Positions 3,788 to 49,143 of a DNA stretch of 57,308 nt are shown here, piece by piece. The stretch is from a virus. Taxonomy: Duplodnaviria > Heunggongvirae > Uroviricota > Caudoviricetes. The notes beneath the pieces are model-generated. The model saw nothing but the letters and a program-made list of their open reading frames with translations, searched no databases and was not told the origin of the DNA. A program made the translations under genes and the position numbers. The stretch spans positions 64,001 to 121,308 of IMG/VR virus record IMGVR_UViG_2886837984_000001; one strand, 5' to 3'. The number at the start of each line of letters is the position of its first letter. Positions within the stretch are counted from its first letter, which is position 1.

Positions 3788-4063
3788 ATGAAGATACACG
3801 AAGAAGAGAAGGTTGATCTTCAGCAAAAGGTTCTCGAACACCACATGGGGTTGGCGAACAAGAAGTCTGAAGCAGAAAAGACGCAGAAACTCCGTACACA
3901 CAACAAGATCCGTCGTGTCGGTGAGCGTGTGAACACGTTGGCCGAACTATCGATGCTCGAGAAGAGCGGTGAGAACCTGGCGACGATGTGGTCGCTGCTC
4001 GACATGATCGAGGAAGAGTTAGATATCGTCGAGGTAGAAGTCAAGCGGATGTATCTGCAATGA
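3788..4063 (+). CDS. Hypothetical coiled-coil protein
   Basis: ORF 3755-4063. The ATG at 3788 has the RBS AAAGGTGG. Confidence 0.65.
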   Translation: MKIHEEEKVDLQQKVLEHHMGLANKKSEAEKTQKLRTHNKIRRVGERVNTLAELSMLEKSGENLATMWSLLDMIEEELDIVEVEVKRMYLQ

Positions 4064-4160
4064 ACTCCATCTAAATAAAAAAGTATATAATTAAATAATT
4101 ACATAGTTTCGGCCGAAATATCCAAGAAAACGACTATTTTATTAGGAGGGATAAAGAGCG

Positions 4161-4586
4161 ATGATATTAAACACACAAAACAAGATAAAGAAGATGCGAG
4201 CTTCTTACTTTTATCAAGAAAATGGCGAATCGAAATTCAATCATATTGATATTTTGATTCGAGATGCTAAGGACTTAGATTTGAATAAACTTTTTATCGA
4301 TCAGATTGTAAAATCTAAGAGCTTAAAGAGCGAAAAAATCACAATTCGCGAAATACGAGAACTCTATTTGCATACCTCTGAAAACCCAACGCTTTACGTG
4401 TCTTACGAGGATCATCGCTCAATTATCGCTAAATCAGAATACGATATCAAAAATAGTATTCCAGGACGACGTTACACGAAACAAAAAGATAACGAGGGTG
4501 AATATGTCGTTATTGAGCATATTCGAGTTAAAAATGTGTCGAAAATTAAATCTACAAAAGAAGACTGGATCTATGACAACGTATAA
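4161..4586 (+). CDS. Hypothetical protein
   Basis: 141-aa ORF, RBS AGGAGG. Confidence 0.7.
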   Translation: MILNTQNKIKKMRASYFYQENGESKFNHIDILIRDAKDLDLNKLFIDQIVKSKSLKSEKITIREIRELYLHTSENPTLYVSYEDHRSIIAKSEYDIKNSIPGRRYTKQKDNEGEYVVIEHIRVKNVSKIKSTKEDWIYDNV

Positions 4587-6358: not shown

Positions 6359-6986
6359 ATGGGTAGATACGGTGTGATCGCGTGTTATCAGTGCGGAGAA
6401 GATGTTCATATTGAACACAAAATCAGACTTACGGCTCCTTCGATTTGTTGCTCTCGAGAGTGCGCTGCGAAATATAAAAAATCTCAAAGAAAAAACAATA
6501 TGATATGTCCGGTTTGTAGTAAAGAATTTTATTTAAAACAATATTCGGTCAAAAAAAGCCAAACACGACTCCTGCTGTTCGTATGAGTGTATGGGTGAAT
6601 ATCGTAAGAAAGTTTACTACGGAGACAAAAATCCAAACTACGGCAACAGAGGTAGCAAAAACCCAATCTTTAAAGGCGGACGAAAGCGAAACGGCTACAC
6701 TCTGATCTACATGAGGGATAAGCATCCGTTTACGGACTGCAACAATTACGTGTTTGAACATCGATTAGTCGCTGAAAACGAGCTTCCGATGACAGATGAG
6801 CAAAAAGTTGAAATTGACGGCAAATTTTACTTGAAACGAGAATACGATTTCCATCATAAGAATCAGATTAAAGATGATAACAGGTCTGAAAATCTTGAGA
6901 TCGTATCTAGATCAGAACACATGGCCATACATAGCTTTATTAATCGAGGATATACAAGAAATAAACAGATTGGGGAGAAATACAGA
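6359..6986 (+). pseudogene. Free-standing HNH homing endonuclease with Zn-binding N-terminus, frameshifted at A7 (6551-6557) and lacking its own stop (runs into dut)
   Basis: CxxC/CCSxxC repeats. Removing one A joins ...YSVKK to AKHDSCCSYECMGEY. Then YVFEHRLV...FHHKNQIKDDNRSENLEIVSRSEHMAIH (HNH). Confidence 0.8.
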
Positions 6987-8815: not shown

Positions 8816-9238
8816 CAACGCGCCGGTAGCGGAGCTGTTTACCTAAATATCTTCCATGCGGATGTTGAAATGTTCCTCAGTACAAAAAAAGTAAACAGCG
8901 ACGAAAAGGTTCGAATTAAAACGCTCTCGCTCGGTCTGATTGCGCCCGATAAGTTCTTCGATCTGGCCGCAAAAGACCAGGATATGTATGTCTTTTATCC
9001 TCATACAGTCTATAAAGAGTACGGTGTGCGTTTAAACGAAATGGATATGACCGAAATGTATGACAAGTTGGTCGAGAACCCGAACGTCCGTAAACGACGT
9101 GTTATTGCTCGAGACTTGCTGAATGAGATTGCTAAGACTCAGATGGAGTCAGGTTATCCGTACATCATGTACATTGACAATGCGAATAAAGACAATCAGT
9201 TAAAGGACATCGGAAAGATTAAGATGTCAAACTTGTGT
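8816..9238 (+). CDS. nrdE: Class Ib RNR alpha subunit, exon 2
   Basis: QRAGSGAVYLNIFH...ESGYPYI...KMSNLC, ending on the thiyl-radical Cys. Confidence 0.93.
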
Positions 9239-9503
9239 TAGATTCTAGCACCTTCTACGAGCGATCGTAGTCGAAAACTCCGTTAAACGGGGAAACTCTC
9301 ACATGAGACAATCCCGTAGTAAAGATTCGCATATGCGATAAAAAACTCTAACGACTATCCCATTTGGGAGTACGCCATAAGCGATTGATGGCGGAAAAGC
9401 GGAGCATCTTACATAGATGATGATATAGTCTCCTCTGCATGGCGACATGTAGCAGTTCATAAGAGAACGCGTTGTTCGGTAGCGTGAATAACGGAAGACA
9501 AGG
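9239..9503 (+). mobile_element. Group I intron nrdE-I2 (265 nt, no ORF)
   Basis: TGT|tag ... acaagG|ACA. TAAACGGGGAA, AATCCCGTAG, TCTAACGACTA, GATATAGTC. Splicing restores SNLC|TEILQ. Confidence 0.92.
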
Positions 9504-14266: not shown

Positions 14267-14845
14267 ATGTTGCAACTATCATTGATCGCTTGCGTCGATA
14301 AGAAGCTCGGTATCGGCAAAGGGAACGACCTAATCTATACATACAAGGAAGACATGGAGCACTTCATCAAGACGACGAGAGGCCATATCGTCATCATGGG
14401 GTCGGAGACATACCTGTCGCTGAAGCGTCCGCTCAAAGATCGCCTGAACATCGTCCTCACCTCGGGCAACAATAAAGAGGTGAACGAGCGACGGAAAATA
14501 GACGGGAAATACTTGACCGACAAAACTGATATTTTATTCGTCAACTCTGTCGAGGAAGTGCTTCGATTCATCGCAAAACCGCGCCAAAAAGACCGTAAGG
14601 CTTTCGTTATCGGAGGCGAGTCCATCTATACACAGTTCCTATTGTTCGCAAGCGAGCTGATCCTTACGGAAGTGGACGACGTCCGACCTGCGGATAAATA
14701 TTTCCCTGAATTCAATTGGCTTAAATTTGAGGTCGTCGAAGAGCGGTCATTAATCGAGAATGTAACCATCAAAATCTACGAAAGAAAGGTCGATCGACAT
14801 GTTGAAACAACTATTGAAGAACTATCCGCAAGTGGCGTCACTTAA
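14267..14845 (+). CDS. folA: Dihydrofolate reductase
   Basis: IACVD..LGIGKGNDL, EDMEHF, VIMGSETY.SL.RPLKDRLNIVLT, VIGGESIY. Confidence 0.92.
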   Translation: MLQLSLIACVDKKLGIGKGNDLIYTYKEDMEHFIKTTRGHIVIMGSETYLSLKRPLKDRLNIVLTSGNNKEVNERRKIDGKYLTDKTDILFVNSVEEVLRFIAKPRQKDRKAFVIGGESIYTQFLLFASELILTEVDDVRPADKYFPEFNWLKFEVVEERSLIENVTIKIYERKVDRHVETTIEELSASGVT

Positions 14846-19849: not shown

Positions 19850-20349
19850 CTTCGTTTAGCTTCTTCTCTATCCGCAATGATCTTATCCACCTTGCCTTCC
19901 ATCTTCTGAAAGTATCGAGGCGTGTTTGCGTCCTTGTTCGTATAGTATCTCGACCGACGATAATGATATTCGATATAGTCCGAGAACACATATATGAAAG
20001 GGGTTTTCGTCGTGGCCGAATAATCCTTGATCTCTCCATACAGTGCCGTCGGGATCAGAAGGCTTTTGACTTTCCAGTCGATCTTTTTGACACGAATCGG
20101 GATCAAGGGGGGAGTGTAGTCGCCGCTCTCGACGTTTAAGGGGAAGTCGTCCGCGATCTCTTTCATAAGATCGTTGACGGGAGTACCCGAATAGTAAGAG
20201 AGCATCTTAAGGATCTTATAGTCCCGCTCGTACACCTTCACGATCTTCCCTCTATCCTTGTTTCGTCTTGCCATATCCTCTTCGGTCAAGATGCTCGACT
20301 TCTTGTCCAACACCTTGTTCTTGTCAAAATTACTGTTTAACTTCTTCAT
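19840..20349 (-). CDS. Putative centromere-binding protein with two ribbon-helix-helix-like segments (type Ib ParB analogue)
   Basis: Directly downstream of and overlapping parA. Flexible basic N-tail, then IVKVYERDYKILKMLSYYSGTPVNDLMKEI and SLLIPTALYGEIKDYSATTKTPFIYVFSDYI. Confidence 0.6.
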   Translation of the reverse strand: MKKLNSNFDKNKVLDKKSSILTEEDMARRNKDRGKIVKVYERDYKILKMLSYYSGTPVNDLMKEIADDFPLNVESGDYTPPLIPIRVKKIDWKVKSLLIPTALYGEIKDYSATTKTPFIYVFSDYIEYHYRRSRYYTNKDANTPRYFQKMEGKVDKIIADREEAKRRRW

Positions 20350-21238
20350 TGCTCTCACTCATTTCCTTGATCCGCAGCAACACCTCGTCCACGACGGTCT
20401 CGAAGTGGGTCATCACCTCTTTATCCCAATTGTCGTACTCCCCAAAGTTGGTTGTGTCGGGATTAAAAGACTTCCCTTTTTCCGCCGCCTTGCGCATACG
20501 GGTCTCGATCATCTTCGGCACTAAGACATTTCTGTGGTACGCATACAGGCCATGCTTGGCGTACTTGCTGATCCGTGTCCGATAAGGGATGAACGCCCGG
20601 AAGAACGTGTCGTAGTCCGATAAGTCGTACTCTCGCGCAATCTCCACCATCGTATCCTTGTTGTCCTCACGTTTGTTCACCAGGACTCCTAAGAACTGAA
20701 GGTCTTTGTTGACGTGCTGATTGATCCGTTCGGCCACATCATAGAAGTCTCCGATTCCCTCGAACGAATATGCGCTCACCTCGCTCACGACGATAAAGTA
20801 GTCGCTAGCAGCCAAAGAGCTGTTCAAGAACACGCTGAACGTCGTAGGCGGTGTGTCAAAGAAGATGTAATCATAGTCATCCTCAATCTTTTTGACCATG
20901 TTTCGGAAATACGTGAACTCATTCTTTTCGTTCAATAAAAGACCGAAATTGGCCGTGTCTTGCGAGCTTGGAATGAAGTGGAAATTGACCGTCGGTCTCA
21001 GGATCGATGGCAACAGGTCTTTTGATTTCAGACCATCGAACACGGTTGTTGCGCTCTCAGAGAATCCGTCCTCATAGAACGTTTTAAACAATGTTCGTGT
21101 CGAGTTGGATTGAGGGTCAAAGTCCATAAACAATACCCTCTGACCTCTTTTGGCGAGCTCATACGCCACGAGCAAAGATGTTGTCGTCTTCCCGGCCCCA
21201 CCCTTAGAGTTACCTATCGTTAGCTTCTTTGCCATCAT
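20330..21238 (-). CDS. parA: ParA/Soj-family partition ATPase
   Basis: Deviant Walker A GNSKGGAGKTT, DFDPQSN, YIFFDTPP. No N-terminal HTH extension (type Ib). Confidence 0.93.
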   Translation of the reverse strand: MMAKKLTIGNSKGGAGKTTTSLLVAYELAKRGQRVLFMDFDPQSNSTRTLFKTFYEDGFSESATTVFDGLKSKDLLPSILRPTVNFHFIPSSQDTANFGLLLNEKNEFTYFRNMVKKIEDDYDYIFFDTPPTTFSVFLNSSLAASDYFIVVSEVSAYSFEGIGDFYDVAERINQHVNKDLQFLGVLVNKREDNKDTMVEIAREYDLSDYDTFFRAFIPYRTRISKYAKHGLYAYHRNVLVPKMIETRMRKAAEKGKSFNPDTTNFGEYDNWDKEVMTHFETVVDEVLLRIKEMSESNEEVKQ

Positions 21239-21277: not shown

Positions 21278-21338
21278 GTTCTAACATTAGAACATTAAAA
21301 GTTCTAATTGTAGAATATATAAGATACAACGTTAGAGT
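21278..21338. repeat. Palindrome array 1, at the parA promoter (3 copies)
   Basis: Copies start at 21278, 21301 and 21323 (third degenerate). They overlap a candidate minus-strand promoter TTGACG-18-TATCTT. Confidence 0.85.
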
Positions 21339-21426
21339 TTAATGCGTCAAAATATGGCTCTAACAAACAATTAAAGTATATTATTTCAGATACCTTAATT
21401 AAAATAAAAAAAGAACCATAATGCAA

Positions 21427-21999: not shown

Positions 22000-22037
22000 T
22001 ATCTAATGTTAGAAAATAAATATTACAAAGTTAGAAG
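22000..22037. repeat. Palindrome array 2 (2 degenerate copies)
   Basis: TATCTAATGTTAGAAA (22000) and ATTACAAAGTTAGAAG (22022), 22-bp phase. Confidence 0.65.
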
Positions 22038-22105
22038 ATAAAATGTACAGAAACCCTTTAACAGAGCCGTTTTTGTCCTACCTACACACCGACAATTAAA
22101 CAAAT

Positions 22106-22137
22106 AAAAAACGACGACTCTCAAAAGAGAATCGCCG
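22106..22137 (-). terminator. Minus-strand intrinsic terminator
   Basis: CGGCGATTCTC-TTTT-GAGAGTCGTCG + T6 on the minus strand. The two G-U wobbles only work in this orientation. Confidence 0.8.
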
Positions 22138-22144
22138 TCAAGAC

Positions 22145-22173
22145 TTGCATTTCAGAAATTTTAGCTATACAAT
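22145..22173 (+). promoter_or_regulatory. sigmaA-type promoter facing the ORF-free structured region
   Basis: TTGCAT-17-TACAAT. Confidence 0.65.
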
Positions 22174-22206
22174 TAACTCAACAACTGAATTAAGACGCAA
22201 ACCTAC

Positions 22207-22215
22207 TGTGGATAA
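22207..22215. promoter_or_regulatory. DnaA box
   Basis: TGTGGATAA, same orientation as the box at 21946. Confidence 0.55.
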
Positions 22216-22469
22216 CTTTTCTGACGGCTGCAACCTTCAGATCAGAATCCTTAACTCTTGAAACAACAAAGCGTTGCAAGAATACAAGAAAAACTTTTCC
22301 TACGAGTTTTTTCTTAAATTCATTGTACCTTGCAGCGCGGAAAAATTCAAGAGAAGTTGGTCTATTAGCCATGCCTTTTTTAGAAAAAGTGCATTTTGGC
22401 ATAGACCTTTTTGCGTTGCAAGGAATTGCCTGATACCTTGTCTTAAAAACTGACAGAGGCTAGTTGGTG

Positions 22470-23225
22470 CCTCGTGCGTCCGTACACAAACGGAATGGGA
22501 GCTACCCCTCAATCAACGGCCACATGCGATCGGAAACGATACGATCATGTGTGGTGACTTTTATCTCGAAGCGATCTCCCAATCGGTCGCTCGAGAGGGT
22601 GATAGCTACCATAAAAACGCTGTACGAGGACGGATGATGTCTCTACGGAGACGAAGGATCACACATAAGTACGTTGCCAAACATCGTAAACGAGTCCGTA
22701 ATGGACGCCTGTGAGAACGGGCGGACGAAACAGAATGGACGAATCCCGAAAGGGTAGGGCGCGGAAACCGCAAGGGGTCATTTGAGTGTGTAGTGTGGTC
22801 ATAGGGAAACCTTAGGATTGATTGGGCTGATACGACGGAAACCGAGCATGAAGCAAGGGATGAACCGATCAGAATCTCTTCCTTCTTGCACCCTGTAAAA
22901 AATTTTTACGGGATGCAGGAAGGAATTTTCTGTCCACCGTTTCCGTCATTTCGCTTCAGGATGATGTGTTCTCCATCGAGGTCAAGTGTTAACTGTCCCT
23001 TTGGGACAGAAAATTCCTTAAGTAATTAAGTAATTGAATGAGCGAAAGCGAATGACTTCGCAAAGCGAAGAAGAGGTTTATTAGTCTGTGCTACGAGGGA
23101 TACGAGTCTAGCGAAGTCTGACGAAGTGTTCCGCAGTAGCGAGCAATGAGTGTTTGGCGTAAACGCCGAAACACGAAGCGGTAGGGGAGAGTAGATAAGC
23201 TAAGGCAGATCGACCGCTTAATCCG
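22470..23225 (+). ncRNA. Candidate large structured non-coding RNA
   Basis: No credible ORF. Many stems with GAAA loops (22529-22540, 22745-22754, 22803-22812), a cUACGg loop (22639-22652), long stems, and G-U pairs favouring the + strand. Confidence 0.55.
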
Positions 23226-23344
23226 TCAGGATTTCAGGGAGATCTAAAAGGACTGAGATGAAGAAAAGGGAAGTTTTTACCACTGAATTGATTATTATTT
23301 ACATGAGGTATCTGAAATAAAAGAGAGGTTTTAATCCATAACGC

Positions 23345-23379
23345 AAAAAAAATGCGGACACCCCCGAAGGAATGCCCGC
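23345..23379 (-). terminator. Terminator ending the lysis/late transcript
   Basis: GCGGGCATTCC-TTCG-GGGGTGTCCGC + T8. Confidence 0.85.
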
Positions 23380-23385
23380 TCGTAT

Positions 23386-23694
23386 TCAATTTCCTAACTG
23401 TTCCTTGACGTCGACGATGACCTTCTCAAGCATCACCTTGTCGACGTCTACGCCGATATCTTCGAGCTTGAGACGACCGAACTCGATCAAGAAATCGATA
23501 TCCTGAGTCTGCTCGATCTCGAGACCTTGTGTCTTCGCCATGTCGACGAGGAAGTCCAAGACCGCCTCCTCCTCGATGACGTCCGCAGGGACGAAACCGC
23601 CATACGATTTCTTCCAAAGCTTCGCCACCACGCCTAACACGGCCACGATACCCGTCGCGACGATCGCTAACAGGTTTTCCATGATCATTTCCAT
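23386..23694 (-). CDS. Membrane-anchored lysis-cassette protein (holin LL-H-like)
   Basis: One N-terminal TM helix, acidic soluble tail, located after the holin. Confidence 0.5.
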   Translation of the reverse strand: MEMIMENLLAIVATGIVAVLGVVAKLWKKSYGGFVPADVIEEEAVLDFLVDMAKTQGLEIEQTQDIDFLIEFGRLKLEDIGVDVDKVMLEKVIVDVKEQLGN

Positions 23695-35264: not shown

Positions 35265-35346
35265 GTTCTAACATTAGATTATTAATCTTCTACAATTAGA
35301 TGTTTTAGTTTCTAATGTTAGAACCTTTATATACCAACGTTAGAAC
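35265..35346. repeat. Palindrome array 3 (4 copies)
   Basis: Copies start at 35265, 35287, 35309 and 35331: exact 22-bp phase. Confidence 0.9.
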
Positions 35347-35374: not shown

Positions 35375-36127
35375 TCAACGGTACTTCTCTCGATACTTGA
35401 TGACGAGATGGACGTCCCCGCTCAACTCCAACAGGTTGTTCCCTGTCGCGAGCCACATATAGTTCTCGTTCCACGAGTCATAGCGATAGACGTTCGGGAG
35501 CGACGACTCGACCGATTCCCGGTTGGTGTCGATGACCATCTTCTCGCCCTCGGCCATCTCATGAACGACCATCTCCTCGTTCGTCCGCAGGTTCTTCATG
35601 CGGAACGGGTTGTCTGCGGTGATGTTCGTCCTGGCGTACAATTCATAGATCGGCTTGACGAGCGTGATCCCCTTGTTGACGAACTGATAGTCACCAGAAT
35701 CCTCGTACTCGATGGCAACGACAGGCGTATGCCAATAGGACGAATTCGCCCGGACGTTGACCGTGAAGTAGCCACCGATCCCGTCGTGCGAGAGCCTTGG
35801 CGACGACTCGACCATCGCCCAGATGATACGGTCGGGCATCTCGTCGAAATAGAACGGTTTGTAGTAATCCTTGTCGAGCCACGACAACACCTTGTCGAGC
35901 TTGAAACGGTCGAAACCGTCCTCGAAATACAGCGTCATCTCGAACGAGATTGTGTCCCGAGTGACGTGCTTCAGATATGTCTCGTCCGAACCCCGAACCT
36001 GTTCCGTCTCGAGCGTCCGTGACGACATCATATCGTCCTCGAACAGCCCCCCGTTCACCGAAACCTGTACCAATCCGAACTCATATGACGGTCTGCCGTC
36101 ATAGTTGAAACCCATAAAATGCTTCAT
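35375..36127 (-). CDS. Distal tail protein (Dit, Sipho_tail-like)
   Basis: Directly after the TMP. F...G..S.EFGL, ISFEMTL.F, WL....YKP..FDE.PD, WLATGNN.LE. Confidence 0.82.
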   Translation of the reverse strand: MKHFMGFNYDGRPSYEFGLVQVSVNGGLFEDDMMSSRTLETEQVRGSDETYLKHVTRDTISFEMTLYFEDGFDRFKLDKVLSWLDKDYYKPFYFDEMPDRIIWAMVESSPRLSHDGIGGYFTVNVRANSSYWHTPVVAIEYEDSGDYQFVNKGITLVKPIYELYARTNITADNPFRMKNLRTNEEMVVHEMAEGEKMVIDTNRESVESSLPNVYRYDSWNENYMWLATGNNLLELSGDVHLVIKYREKYR

Positions 36128-36140
36128 TTATCCACCACCT

Positions 36141-36165
36141 AAAAAGGAGAGCCGAAGCCCTCCTT
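36141..36165 (-). terminator. Intrinsic terminator after the TMP
   Basis: AAGGAGGGC-TTCG-GCTCTCCTT + T-run. The Dit RBS follows immediately. Confidence 0.8.
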
Positions 36166-39100
36166 AGCGTTTTCCGTACTTGTTGTTAATGAGGTTCATC
36201 GTGCGCTTCATGAAGTCGTCCGATGCCTCTTTGCCGTCCTTGATCTCGTTGTTGCTGAAATCGTTGTTGATGTTCTCGATATGAACCGTCGGAGCGCTAG
36301 ACCCCTTGACGCTCTGCATCTTGTTGATGAGCGAACGGAGAGGTGAGATGAGGCGGTCGGTGAATTCTACCGTCTTCAACATGTTCTTCGTCTGCTCTTG
36401 GTTGAGCACGAGCTCCTTCTTGTGGAGGATCGCCGGCATACCGCCGTTGAACTCGCCCGTGTACATACCGCCCGAAGCGAACGACCCGACGAAGTTCTTG
36501 TTCACATACCCCGTCTTGTCTCCGTATTGCACCTCATACATGAGCCCACGGTCACGGAGGATTTTGATCGACGTCCCTTTCGGGATCGATGTCATGATTC
36601 CTTCTACCGAGATATACGGGTTCGCATAAAGTGCGGCGTTCGAGCTCGTCTTCGCGTTCTTGTCGATCGTCGTGCTTCCTTTTAATGATTCGTACAGGGC
36701 GTCGAACTCGCGCTTGGCTCGGATGATCTCCGACTGCATGTCCGATAGGGACTTGACGTACTCGTCGAGCGCCTTGTTTCGATCTTCGTTCGTCGATGCC
36801 GACTCGTAAGCCGAATAATACTTCTGAAGAGCCGACTGTTGTTTCGATTTAATCCGGTTCGTACTATCCGTCACCATGTCGTCATAGACACGTTTGCCGG
36901 AATCGTAAGAGATCGAGTCGACACGGGCGTTATGCGCTTTTGCCGTCACGCTGTACTGCTTCAACAACTCGTTGATCGGTGCGCTCGCCTGATTGAGCTC
37001 CGACGCTCTCGTATGGCTCATCGCCACACCCCATGAGTTCGATTGTTTCGATGTGGACAGTTCTGAATTACTTACCCAACCCGTCTGACCGTTAGAAAGC
37101 TTAACTTTAGAATGTGTACCCGTCTGCTCAAGAACCTCGTACCCTTTTCCGTCGACCAACGACCCGATCACTTTAGAACTGCCGTTCGCATCTGCTCTCA
37201 CCGATACCGGTTTGGCAGAACCCGTTTGAGCCGCATACATCGATAACCCTGTCACCGGTGCTTCTTGCGATAAGTCGTCTCCCGAGCTCGGATTCTTGTA
37301 ATCCGTATCGAAATCTTTCCCTGTCAATTGCGAAAGAAGGTCTAACGCCTCTTTCAGCTTGTCGATGTAGTTCGTCTGCAAGACCTGTCCGAGAGAGTCG
37401 AACGAACTTTGAGACGTATGCACGATATCGCCCAACGCTTTTGAAATTGTGTCTGCGAGCGCGATGGTCTCGTACTCTGTGTCGTCGTAGAGATACGACA
37501 AATCTTTGAGCACGTCCTGATACGTCTTACCGAGGTTGTCGTACATCGTTCTGAATCCTTTCGATGTATCGATCAACATCTCGTTCGCCATCCGTTTCAC
37601 TTCGTCGAAGTTCCCTTTCATGGCTTGTTCGCGGATTTCGTTCCACTTCCGCTCGTCGTTCAACACGTCGTCGTAATATTTATTCAGGTCTTCGAGCATC
37701 TTGTCGAACAATGCCGATTCCGCTTCTTCACGACGATCCATGTCTTCCTCGAACTTCTCGTAGTTCTCGTCCTCTACCTTCTGTTTGTCATCGAGGTTCT
37801 TCTCGTACAATTCACGTTCTTTATCGATGGCTTCCTTCTGTTTCTCGAAGTCTCGTTGATACAGGTATTCCTCGCGCTCCTCTTGGAGTGTCTGGAGCTC
37901 TTTCATCAACTCTTTGCGTTTCGCCTTTGCCTCGAACGAGTCGTCCATCGAGATGCGGTTGATCGAACTACGGATCTCTTGCTCACGCTCCGAATACTCG
38001 TCCATCTGTTTCTGATGGCTTCGCTCGTCGTTCTGTTCATCTAAACGTTTGATACGCTCGTCGAAGAAGTCGTTCATCTTCTCGCGCTCTTTGTCTAGCT
38101 CCTTCATCGTCTTCTCGTGGGCATTCTGTCGGACGTTGCGTTCACGCTGAATGGCCTTCTCGCGCTCCTGCTGAATCTTCTCGATCGACTTGATCTCCGC
38201 GTCGCGCTGCGCCTCCAAAGCTTCGCGGATTGTTTCAATCATGCTGTCAGAGAAACCTCCGAGCATGTCTTTTTGAGCGGAGTTAAGGCTGTTCACCGAA
38301 TCCTCGAGCGACAACAGCTCCTCGCTGTACCGCTTCACGAATTCAAGTTGTTGTTCGTACTCTTTTGAGGATGCCCCGTATTTCTTGCGAACCTCTGACA
38401 AGATGGCTCTCTCTGCCTCTAGTTGCCGCTTCTTGATGTCCCAAAGCTTGCGCTCCGTCTTTTCTTGCTCGACGGTCGTGACATATTTCTTGACGAGGTC
38501 GGTGTTCGACTCACCGTCCATGATCGCCAATTGACGTTGGAAGAAATCTTGATTTTTTTTAAGGTCACGCATTTGATTTTCGTACAGTTTATTACGAATC
38601 TCTGTACGCTCGCGCGCGATTTCCATCGCCGCCTGACGCTCTTCCTGAATCTCTTGTTTGAGAACCCATCTGAGGTCGTCGAGTCGTGCCGTGAACTCGG
38701 CTTGACGAGATAGCGATAACTGCTTGTAATAAGCGCCTTTTCGATCTTTTTCCATTTGAATGATCTCGAGCTCGACGGCACGACGTTGGAGTCTCGCGTT
38801 GTTTTGCAGTTTCTCGTAGAGAGCCAACGATTGACGGGTGTACTCGACCGTCGTCTCCATGTTCGCGCGGACAAGCTCCTCGTCTTTCCCGTATCTGTCG
38901 TACATCGACTTATACGTGTTCGCCCGAGCGTTGAGGTAGTCGAGGATAATCTGTTGTCTGCTGTCTTCGATCTTGTTGAGCTCTTCAATCTGACGGATTT
39001 CTTCGGCTTTCTGTTCAGCTAGATTCTGTGCTTTTTCTGCCTGCGCTTTTGTTTGGTCGGCAATCTTCTTCTCTTGGTCTACCTGAGTAGAAGAGACGGA

Positions 39101-43159: not shown

Positions 43160-43438
43160 CATGTCTGTTACTTTCTTTTGTCCTAATATTCTAATGTTAG
43201 AATATATAAGTTCTAATGTTAGAACAAAATACTGACCAACATATACCTGAAACCCGTTGGCGGAGAGGCGCTTCAACCTCTCTCTTGCAGTCTCCTGCAA
43301 AGTTCAGACTATCGCTTCACATACACATGGGTATGTGTCTTTTCGTTTAGTCGTTCACGCTGCCATTACGCTTGCGCCCTGTTGTCCCATATGAGGGAGT
43401 TCCAAGTCGATTAGAAAAGATTTTACATCGGCAACTCT
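43160..43438 (-). mobile_element. Group I intron TMP-I2 (279 nt, no ORF)
   Basis: Minus strand ATCGGT|agagttGCCGAT (6-bp P1 with U-G). TCTTTTC/GAAAAGA P3. GTGAACGACTA / GATAGTC P7. Ends ...acatG|AAC. Splicing restores ANIG|NSLKTIFSR. Confidence 0.9.
43188..43225. repeat. Palindrome array 4 (2 copies) inside intron TMP-I2
   Basis: ATTCTAATGTTAGAAT (43188) and GTTCTAATGTTAGAAC (43210), 22-bp phase. Confidence 0.9.
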
Positions 43439-47923: not shown

Positions 47924-47983
47924 GTTCTAACGTTAGAACAAACAGTTTCTAACATTAGAATATTAAAGTTCTAACATTAGAAC
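47924..47983. repeat. Palindrome array 5 (3 copies) upstream of the recombinase
   Basis: Copies start at 47924 (perfect palindrome GTTCTAACGTTAGAAC), 47946 and 47968. Confidence 0.9.
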
Positions 47984-49038: not shown

Positions 49039-49143
49039 ATTCCAATGTTAGAACGTTGTACGGTTCTTCCATCAGTTATGAAAGTTCTAATGTTAGAACA
49101 TTTAATTTCTACAATTAGAACTTTTAGATTCTAATGTTAGAAC
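49039..49143. repeat. Palindrome array 6 (4 copies)
   Basis: Copies start at 49039, 49084, 49106 and 49128. Confidence 0.9.

Follow-up and report, generated by a model that had tools for sequence, protein, structure and literature searches.

The window, by which we mean the whole stretch of DNA analysed here (57,308 nt), comes from a viral record of 121,308 bp that belongs to a large Exiguobacterium phage. From the end of a minus-strand lysis cassette to a minus-strand parA operon it contains no ORF longer than 70 aa. The original prediction had singled out 22470-23225 within this interval as ORF-free, and the longest ORF there is indeed 57 aa. Comparison with related phages gives a conserved non-coding block of 22102-23385, larger than the segment first noted, of which about 22424-23250 on the plus strand (~0.8 kb) is common to phages and plasmids. 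The features of the locus are as follows.

20330-21238, minus strand: parA, partition operon
21381-21395, minus strand: left copy of the inverted motif (G)GTATNTGAAATAA
21427-21825: small gene of 132 aa, between parA and the RNA element
22110-22139, minus strand: intrinsic terminator from the terminator scan, at the left edge of the phage-conserved block
22145-22173, plus strand: promoter-like P1, TTGCAT (22145-50), 17-nt spacer, TACAAT (22168-73), with a predicted start near 22181
22207-22215, no strand assigned: consensus DnaA box TGTGGATAA, an exact match, invariant in 6/6 phage homologues
22322-22350, minus strand: promoter-like TTGAAT-17-TACAAT from the promoter scan, inside an invariant stretch
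22403-22440, plus strand: phage-invariant block of 38 nt, occurring once in the 121-kb genome
22447-23019, plus strand: core structured domain, with covariation in six phages; kept in plasmids pEM and pMC3
23020-23250, plus strand: 3′ module of type A, in five small Exiguobacterium plasmids and type A phages
23306-23320, plus strand: right copy of the inverted motif
23354-23379, minus strand: lysis-cassette terminator from the terminator scan, at the right edge of the conserved block
ending at 23386, minus strand: lysis cassette (M23 peptidase, holin, 105-aa gene)

The element lies 1.2 kb upstream of parA in the opposite orientation, and no ORF flanks it on the plus strand on either side. The two copies of the inverted motif bracket the small gene(s) and the RNA module; all six phage homologues have both copies, and their relative positions do not change.

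Conservation of the locus among phages

Homologues were found through relatives of ParA (76-82% identity) and of the 105-aa protein, which gave five distinct phage sequences: L009, L003, L010 (its core identical to those of L011 and L012), L008 and L004. Synteny is retained in these five contigs, the non-coding block lies on the equivalent of the plus strand in all phage homologues, and identity over 22102-23381 is 79-88%. For L008 and L004, blastn similarity ends at about 22825-22883, and their 3′ end is different. Relatives' loci sought through the holin yielded nothing useful, and DnaE led to a single relative at 25% identity. Blastn of the phage collection with the element gave zero matches, as did exact-pattern scans of viral and genome contig collections with the invariant blocks; the sole pattern match in a metagenome contig (L007) was a chance 22-mer within a coding region and was discarded.

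Indels whose lengths are not multiples of three run throughout the alignment of the conserved block, which excludes a coding role, and judging from the aligned sequences conserved coding potential is absent from the element. An apparent 70-aa ORF on the minus strand (22190-22402) was considered as a conserved gene and rejected, being frameshifted or broken in homologues; its conserved part coincides with promoter-like DNA.

The phage-conserved block starts at 22102, and its DnaA box, P1 and antisense unit are not common to the plasmids described below. The terminator at 22110-22139 is kept in six homologues with compensatory changes, among them compensation in the stem of L004, and two base pairs in it are G·U when read on the minus strand but A·C on the plus strand. 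Across six homologues the P1 hexamers are invariant apart from one base in L004, with a spacer that is fixed at 17 nt and variable in sequence. A minus-strand RNA of ~210 nt is predicted from about 22315 to 22105, and would be antisense to the first ~135 nt of the P1 transcript. Inside the 38-nt invariant block, GGAATTGCCTGATACC (22424-22439) marks the 5′ limit of plasmid homology. The 3′ part of the block may form an extended −10 promoter (TGATACCTT), or else the RNA may begin there, the promoter reading being weakened because the plasmids read TACCTC at the −10 position. The RNA may start near 22181, from P1, and/or near 22440, both of which are candidate starts.

A conserved fold of plus polarity

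Folded as a single sequence, the 821-nt stretch 22440-23260 has a minimum free energy of −288.3 kcal/mol, against −241.9 ± 7.9 for shuffled sequences (z = −5.85). Its reverse complement gives z = −5.96 and, as this minus-strand value is also strong, single-sequence folding alone gives no choice of strand. The consensus fold of the homologues reaches −256.7 on the plus strand, whereas the reverse complement gives −206.8; in the six phage sequences, moreover, several pairs stay G·U throughout when read on the plus strand. On these two grounds the fold is assigned to a single strand of plus polarity, and the comparative data agree with the earlier remark that the G-U pairs fit the plus strand only.

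Covariation was assessed in an alignment of six phage sequences, the window and five distinct homologues (alignment A4), using RNAalifold on three and then six sequences, followed by an all-against-all scan for covarying stacks. RNAalifold found many compensatory changes in both cases, and the stack scan returned local hairpins, several long-range helices and one loop-to-strand contact. Across 81 pairs in this alignment, 98.6% are paired and 18 have changed on both sides; column shuffles give 8.0 ± 1.9 such changes, with none of 500 reaching 18, and controls with slid partners give 1-5. When the helix strands were written out for the six phages, zero non-standard pairs appeared. The original prediction had pointed to related phages as the place to look for covariation, and their homologues covary well above the controls. 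Folding z-score, covariation and the absence of a long ORF together uphold its central claim of a large, densely structured, non-coding, RNA-like element on the plus strand.

The element is thus a conserved single-stranded fold of plus polarity, with long-range helices and a pseudoknot. The following parts of the core domain were defined.

22456-60/22469-73, plus strand: H1, covariation-backed helix
22479-83/22490-94, plus strand: H2, covariation-backed helix
22519-26/22548-55, plus strand: H3, covariation-backed helix
22564-69/22591-96 with 22573-76/22585-88, plus strand: H4, covariation-backed helix
22578-22584/22820-22826, plus strand: pseudoknot or kissing contact between the H4 loop (CCCAAUC) and GAUUGGG
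22657-64/22793-800, plus strand: H7, long-range helix, in which A-U alternates with G-C at one pair
22706-12/22717-23, plus strand: H8, covariation-backed helix
22803-05/22810-12, plus strand: GNRA hairpin, in the versions AGG/CCU, GAG/CUC, GGG/CCU and GGG/CCC
22816-19/22873-76, plus strand: Pa, with G-C, A-U and C-G at one position
22827-31/22868-72, plus strand: Pb, covariation-backed helix
22879-22925, plus strand: long hairpin of 47 nt
22923-22935/23004-23016, plus strand: P-LR, long-range helix in three sequence versions

The strands of the pseudoknot read GCCAAUU/AAUUGGC in four homologues, with two pairs changed on both sides, and the contact is kept by both plasmids that carry the whole element. 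P-LR reads GAAUUUUCUGUCC/GGACAGAAAAUUC in the type A phages, GUCAUUUUUUCAA/UUGAAAAAAAUGAC in L008 and L004, and GGCAUUUUCU/AGAAAAUGCC in the plasmids. A local hairpin at 22993-23009 competes with it. Neither the plasmids nor the type B phages (L004 and L008) have this hairpin, so that the long-range helix is taken to be the conserved state.

Three further pairings were considered and set aside. A second pseudoknot, between the H3 loop GGAAACG and CGUUUCC at 22946-22952, has zero covariation and has lost one base in the plasmids; a helix of GCUGUAC with GUACGUYGC is not retained in the plasmid; and GGAUGGA/UCUGUCC, suggested by RNAalifold on three sequences, does not hold up in L004 and L008. 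The individual hairpins first read from the sequence all lie where they had been placed: ATCG-GAAA-CGAT (22529-22540), GTCTC-TACG-GAGAC (22639-22652), CCC-GAAA-GGG (22745-22754), GCGG-AAA-CCGC (22761-22771), AGG-GAAA-CCT (22803-22812), the 47-nt hairpin (22879-22925), GGCG-TAAA-CGCC (23156-23167) and the AAGCGGT/ACCGCTT stem.

Rfam 15 was searched with the window at the gathering score and with 22300-23450 at E up to 10, and the L008 homologue was searched too. No family matched the element beyond chance at E up to 10, in keeping with the initial failure to assign it to a known family; elsewhere in the window the search found two group I introns (RF00028). ARAGORN detected neither tRNA nor tmRNA in the 57-kb window.

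These searches bear on whether the element could be a degenerate or unusual form of a known ribozyme, either an intron of group I or II or a relative of RNase P RNA. Several group I introns are present in the phage, and a decayed group II intron had been named at the outset as something that might lie behind the structure. Hits to the group II D1-D4 models are at chance level (E = 0.53 and 3, both strands). Against an intron of this kind, Intron_gpII and domain V/VI went unmatched at E up to 10, and homologues have CACGCA or CAGGCA in place of the GUGCG at 22474. RF00028 has no match here at E up to 10, and plus-strand exons are missing at both flanks; the Rfam group I model misses some introns, so that its negative is not absolute. 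Short motifs in the element resemble RNase P RNA, but scanning the entire genome of the phage with RF00011 (RNase P RNA, type B) at E up to 10 gave zero matches. We regard a ribozyme of any of these classes as extremely improbable.

Small plasmids and the 3′ module

PLSDB was searched by blastn with the element, and the whole element was found in two plasmids, NZ_CP040674.1 (4590 bp) and pMC3 (NC_023058.1, 4445 bp). Both align to window positions 22421-22974 (~71% identity) and 23080-23168. In an alignment of phages and plasmids (alignment A7) that runs from GGAATTGCCTGATACC (22424) to about 23250, the plasmids keep H1, H2, H3, H4, H7, the UNCG-type hairpin, the pseudoknot, Pb and P-LR, mostly with different sequences, and also the outer stem of the 3′ module. 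Both plasmids code for a MobV relaxase, together with several small orphan proteins. They have only the mob region (82%) and a 1.1-kb non-coding stretch (93%) in common, and it is this stretch that contains the element.

A search with the plasmid copy added three more plasmids of 4.3-4.6 kb, pEspA, NZ_CP040673.1 and NZ_CP109618.1, which carry the 3′ third. Among the small plasmids, the 3′ module shows 91-95% identity. With nhmmer the similarity reaches over the 3′ ~310 nt, at E = 1e-39 for pEspA and E = 2e-41 for NZ_CP040673.1; in pEspA the stretch that corresponds to the 3′ third of the element is 2062-1753 on the minus strand, and blastn gives 79% identity over 67 nt. In the pEspA-type plasmids, nhmmer found nothing but chance-level collinear hits for the core (E about 1-2). 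Besides other small proteins, these plasmids encode Hsp20 and a protein of 157 aa whose tail is ribbon-helix-helix-like.

Hmmscan of selected ORFs from four small plasmids found no Rep domain, and six-frame searches of four plasmids found neither Rep_OBD nor Rep_1. An initiator hidden among the small orphan ORFs is possible. Given that the plasmids are so small and that no Rep gene was found, the non-coding stretch must hold the plasmid replicon. As summarised in PMC5399880, the pEspA homology regions hr-A1, hr-AB and hr-A2 (Jakubauskas et al. 2009) are reported to be sufficient for replication in Bacillus, and the same source has Jakubauskas et al. proposing theta replication for the corresponding regions of pEspB.

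The plasmids also bear on a cis-regulatory or antisense RNA, acting on read-through into the lysis operon or as the leader of a downstream gene, which we judge to be very unlikely. The element does converge on the end of the late operon, and in L004 a 143-aa orphan ORF without Pfam or PHROG match lies 3′ of the core on the same strand. However, the suggestion in the original prediction that the RNA might act antisense to late-operon read-through does not explain an element carried by 4.4-4.6 kb plasmids that have no late operon and none of these neighbours. The ORF, moreover, is reduced to a remnant in L008 and is missing from the window and most homologues, and a structure this large is unnecessary for antisense action.

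Within the 3′ module, three hairpins stand out.

23090-23140, plus strand: main hairpin, with apex CUAGCGAAGUC at 23108-23118
23156-23167, plus strand: hairpin GGCG-UAAA-CGCC
23220-23233, plus strand: terminal hairpin

In eight sequences and over 38 pairs, the module is 95.7% paired, with ten pairs changed on both sides compared with 6.2 ± 1.5 in shuffles (3/500) and 0-4 in slid controls. Across sequences the apex of the main hairpin is CUAGCG(A/U)AGUC, giving TAGCGA in phages and TAGCGT in plasmids. This is the part of the element most widely common to plasmids, and it is missing in the phage contigs L004 and L008, which keep the core. The module moves independently of the core.

Covariation fits RNA and plus-strand single-stranded DNA alike. 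The functional fold might be plus-strand DNA acting as a lagging-strand or primosome-assembly signal of the sso/ssi type, above all in the 3′ module. The G·T-tolerant pairs suit plus-strand DNA equally, and the module is a compact, independently moving hairpin whose apex, TAGCG(A/T), appears to resemble the CS-6 hexamer (TAGCGT) of the ssoA terminal loop. Set against this, helices spanning about 140-250 nt and a pseudoknot give the core an architecture typical of RNA; the phages have conserved promoter-like sites upstream of it; and no rolling-circle Rep was found in the four plasmids searched. That the functional fold is DNA rather than RNA we consider quite unlikely.

A further reading makes the element an ornate RNA of the ROOL/GOLLD kind whose task is not replication (an RNA-only assembly, a decoy or an anti-defence factor) and which travels as cargo with phages and plasmids. 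Its GNRA and UNCG loops, its pseudoknot and its long-range helices go beyond what a simple primer requires, the core persists without the 3′ module in L004 and L008, and GC skew offers no support for an origin here; ROOL and GOLLD, too, are found in prophages (PMC5737381). Membership of either family, which the original prediction had raised as a comparison, finds no backing: neither model is matched at E up to 10, in the window or in the L008 homologue, and there are no tRNA genes nearby. The element is, in addition, the main conserved non-coding DNA of 4.4-4.6 kb plasmids in which no Rep was found, and the replication in Bacillus reported for pEspA, as summarised in PMC5399880, also argues against a non-replicative role. 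We think such a role unlikely.

Proposed function and comparison with known replication systems

In view of its distribution among plasmids and its position beside parA, we propose that 22102-23385 is probably a protein-free, RNA-based plasmid-replication module, the heart of which would be a folded RNA of about 22424/22447-23250 on the plus strand. The element is the main thing common to the 121-kb phage and the small plasmids. In the phage, the replication module and the neighbouring parA cassette would together allow persistence as a plasmid.

Under this proposal, host RNA polymerase would transcribe the element from P1 (22145-22173) and/or from a start near 22440. The core fold would position the 3′ module in such a way that the transcript stays hybridised to its template, and the hybridised transcript, used directly or after processing, would serve as leading-strand primer in the manner of ColE1 RNA II. 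On the displaced plus strand of DNA, the 3′-module hairpin might become accessible for priming or for a primosome. Phages, unlike the plasmids, might in addition set copy number and couple initiation to the host through the predicted ~210-nt antisense RNA against the 5′ leader and the invariant DnaA box. We infer the steps from fold to primer by analogy with ColE1, and likewise what the antisense RNA, DnaA box and 3′ module would do. Since the displaced DNA strand and the RNA are identical in sequence, single-stranded DNA could carry out part of what the fold does, most plausibly in the 3′ module.

Several observations count against a replicon. L004 and L008 do without the 3′ module, and the plasmids lack the upstream block that carries the DnaA box, P1 and the antisense unit. 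The cumulative GC skew of the phage has its maximum at 83-84 kb of the genome, near the element, and its minimum at 33 kb. An origin is expected at the skew minimum, although gene orientation dominates skew in phages, and we therefore dropped GC skew as support for an origin. Lastly, the phage encodes three to four tyrosine recombinases, which leaves room for integration. Searches of the phage genome found no RepA_N or Rep_3 initiator.

A more far-reaching version, which we put forward as speculative and unlikely, is that the RNA is a folded 'RNA initiator' that replaces a Rep protein and is more than a mere primer. Its conserved three-dimensional core would then recruit or position host factors (DnaA at the box close by, the helicase loader, a polymerase or RNase), or the RNA would mature its 3′ end by itself. 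If so, it would represent a class of ribonucleic initiators in Rep-less theta replicons of Bacillota, possibly including pLS20, and in phage-plasmids.

Of initiation in the initiator-free theta replicons of Gram-positive bacteria it is still said that 'very little is known' (PMC8557374). The element offers a tractable case, being a compact module with a model backed helix by helix by covariation, and occurring both in this phage of 121 kb, a probable phage-plasmid, and in cryptic plasmids of 4.4-4.6 kb from the same genus, among them one for which replication in Bacillus has been reported. Were its RNA active, RNA-based replication would extend from the enterobacterial ColE1 and the mycobacteriophages to Bacillota, and the extrachromosomal persistence of large phages that have no plasmid Rep gene would be explained. 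An active RNA would also give structural biologists a new family of large RNAs and geneticists a small replicon for Exiguobacterium, and would mean an exchange of replicon modules between phages and small plasmids.

Several known systems invite comparison. ROOL and GOLLD resemble the element in exceeding 500 nt, in being pseudoknotted and in occurring in Bacillota prophages (PMC5737381; bioRxiv 10.1101/2024.12.08.627333), but the element differs from them in lacking an Rfam match and a tRNA neighbourhood and in a plasmid distribution that points to replication. The ssoA single-strand origins have RSB and CS-6 (TAGCGT) in a terminal loop and belong to rolling-circle plasmids with a Rep gene; the apex of the 3′-module hairpin reads TAGCGA in phages and TAGCGT in plasmids, and no rolling-circle Rep was found in four plasmids.

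ColE1/pMB1, with its RNA II and RNA I, is similar in that no plasmid initiator was found and in its long structured transcript, which is predicted here and whose fold would decide whether a primer forms; the counterpart of RNA I would be the ~210-nt antisense RNA predicted for the 5′ end in phages only. The two are unrelated by sequence or in Rfam, however; the host here belongs to Bacillota, the folding is more complex than in ColE1, and plasmid relatives do not have the antisense unit.

Ori-pLS20 is a ~1.1-kb module of B. subtilis without a replication gene, with DnaA boxes and beside partition genes (PMC8557374). The present module is alike in size (about 1.1-1.3 kb), in having no rep gene, in its DnaA box and adjacent partition module, and in a Bacillales host. 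This is a likeness of kind only: the two were compared by sequence rather than by covariance model, and blastn and nhmmer against NC_015148 (64461-65774 plus 1-80) gave chance hits only.

Most mycobacteriophages with parABS have no repA, and in cluster A a ~600-bp region upstream of parA suffices for autonomous replication and expresses a non-coding RNA opposite to parA (Wetzel et al. 2020, PMC7157519). These non-RepA origins differ in their actinobacterial hosts and in their smaller region (~600 bp against about 0.8-1.3 kb), and here a small gene and a variable spacer separate the element from parA, the tertiary fold is supported by covariation, and a sequence relation is not expected. What these origins of extrachromosomal prophages have in common with our locus is a par cassette, the want of an initiator protein (RepA_N and Rep_3 in our searches) and an RNA, predicted in our case, upstream of and opposite to parA.

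The pEspA replicon, finally, belongs to a 4.6-kb plasmid and not to a phage, and its 5′ two thirds are not detectably similar to the element. It is nevertheless a true sequence relative, in which likewise no Rep gene was found, with a region that is reported to replicate in Bacillus.

An inverted motif pair and recurrent motifs

The motif (G)GTATNTGAAATAA occurs in two inverted copies around the RNA module, and the pair lies at equivalent relative positions in all six phage homologues (the window and phage contigs L003, L004, L008, L009 and L010). Between the copies, each homologue carries one or more small genes, a variable spacer and the RNA module. The pair could be a protein-binding (centromere-like) or recombination site that delimits the module as a cassette.

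21381-21395 (-), first copy of (G)GTATNTGAAATAA in the window
23306-23320 (+), second copy

Within the RNA itself, RCGAAG is present at least six times and GGAUGAUG, which is C-box or k-turn-like, twice; both fall in the recurrent-motif regions at window positions 22630-22660, 22955-22970 and 23040-23130. The RNA also gives weak Rfam matches to C/D snoRNA models, which the GGAUGAUG copies may have caused.

The palindrome TTCTAACATTAGAA is strongly over-represented in the window, with 25 matches against 0.5 expected. Its sites also include one before parA, with one copy in the variable spacer adjoining the RNA module; the matches include 21279-21315, 22001-22014, 35266-35323, 43189-43224, 47925-47982 and 49040-49142.

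Reading frames beside the module

In L004, which keeps the RNA core, a 143-aa orphan ORF (416-847, -) with its own ribosome-binding site follows the core, at the place of the 3′ module of the window. It has no Pfam or PHROG match, and L008 retains only a deleted remnant of its start region (~6440-6560, -). A 70-aa ORF in the window (22190-22402, -) was rejected as a conserved gene: its reading frame is not conserved, being frameshifted among homologues and broken in L009, and its conserved N-terminal part coincides with promoter-like DNA.

Introns and recombinases

Two group I introns, both reaching the Rfam gathering score, sit in the early/replication gene block of the window.

9229-9452 (+), group I intron, 64.7 bits
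11032-11263 (+), group I intron, 73.3 bits

Chromosomal integration of the phage is possible, judging from its gene content, because the genome encodes three clear tyrosine recombinases and one weak match (genome positions 14383-14829, 35856-36173, 92718-93188 and 110955-111503).

Plasmid copy of the RNA and the pLS20 origin

Upstream of the RNA copy on the small Exiguobacterium plasmid L013, at 3900-4172 (-), lies a conserved stretch of ~220 nt, shared at 93% with plasmid L014 and unrelated to the upstream block of the phages.

3949-3910, strong terminator on the same strand, ending the stretch
within 3900-4172, perfect palindrome ATAAACTCAT...ATGAGTTTAT

This region could serve as an operator or encode another small RNA. 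In the Rep-less origin of pLS20 (L016, 2500-3000; pLS20 ~65000-65500), a DnaA box lies within a G+C-rich stretch containing hairpins capped by UACG and GAAA, and the sequence around this box looks like a structured RNA, as does the phage element.
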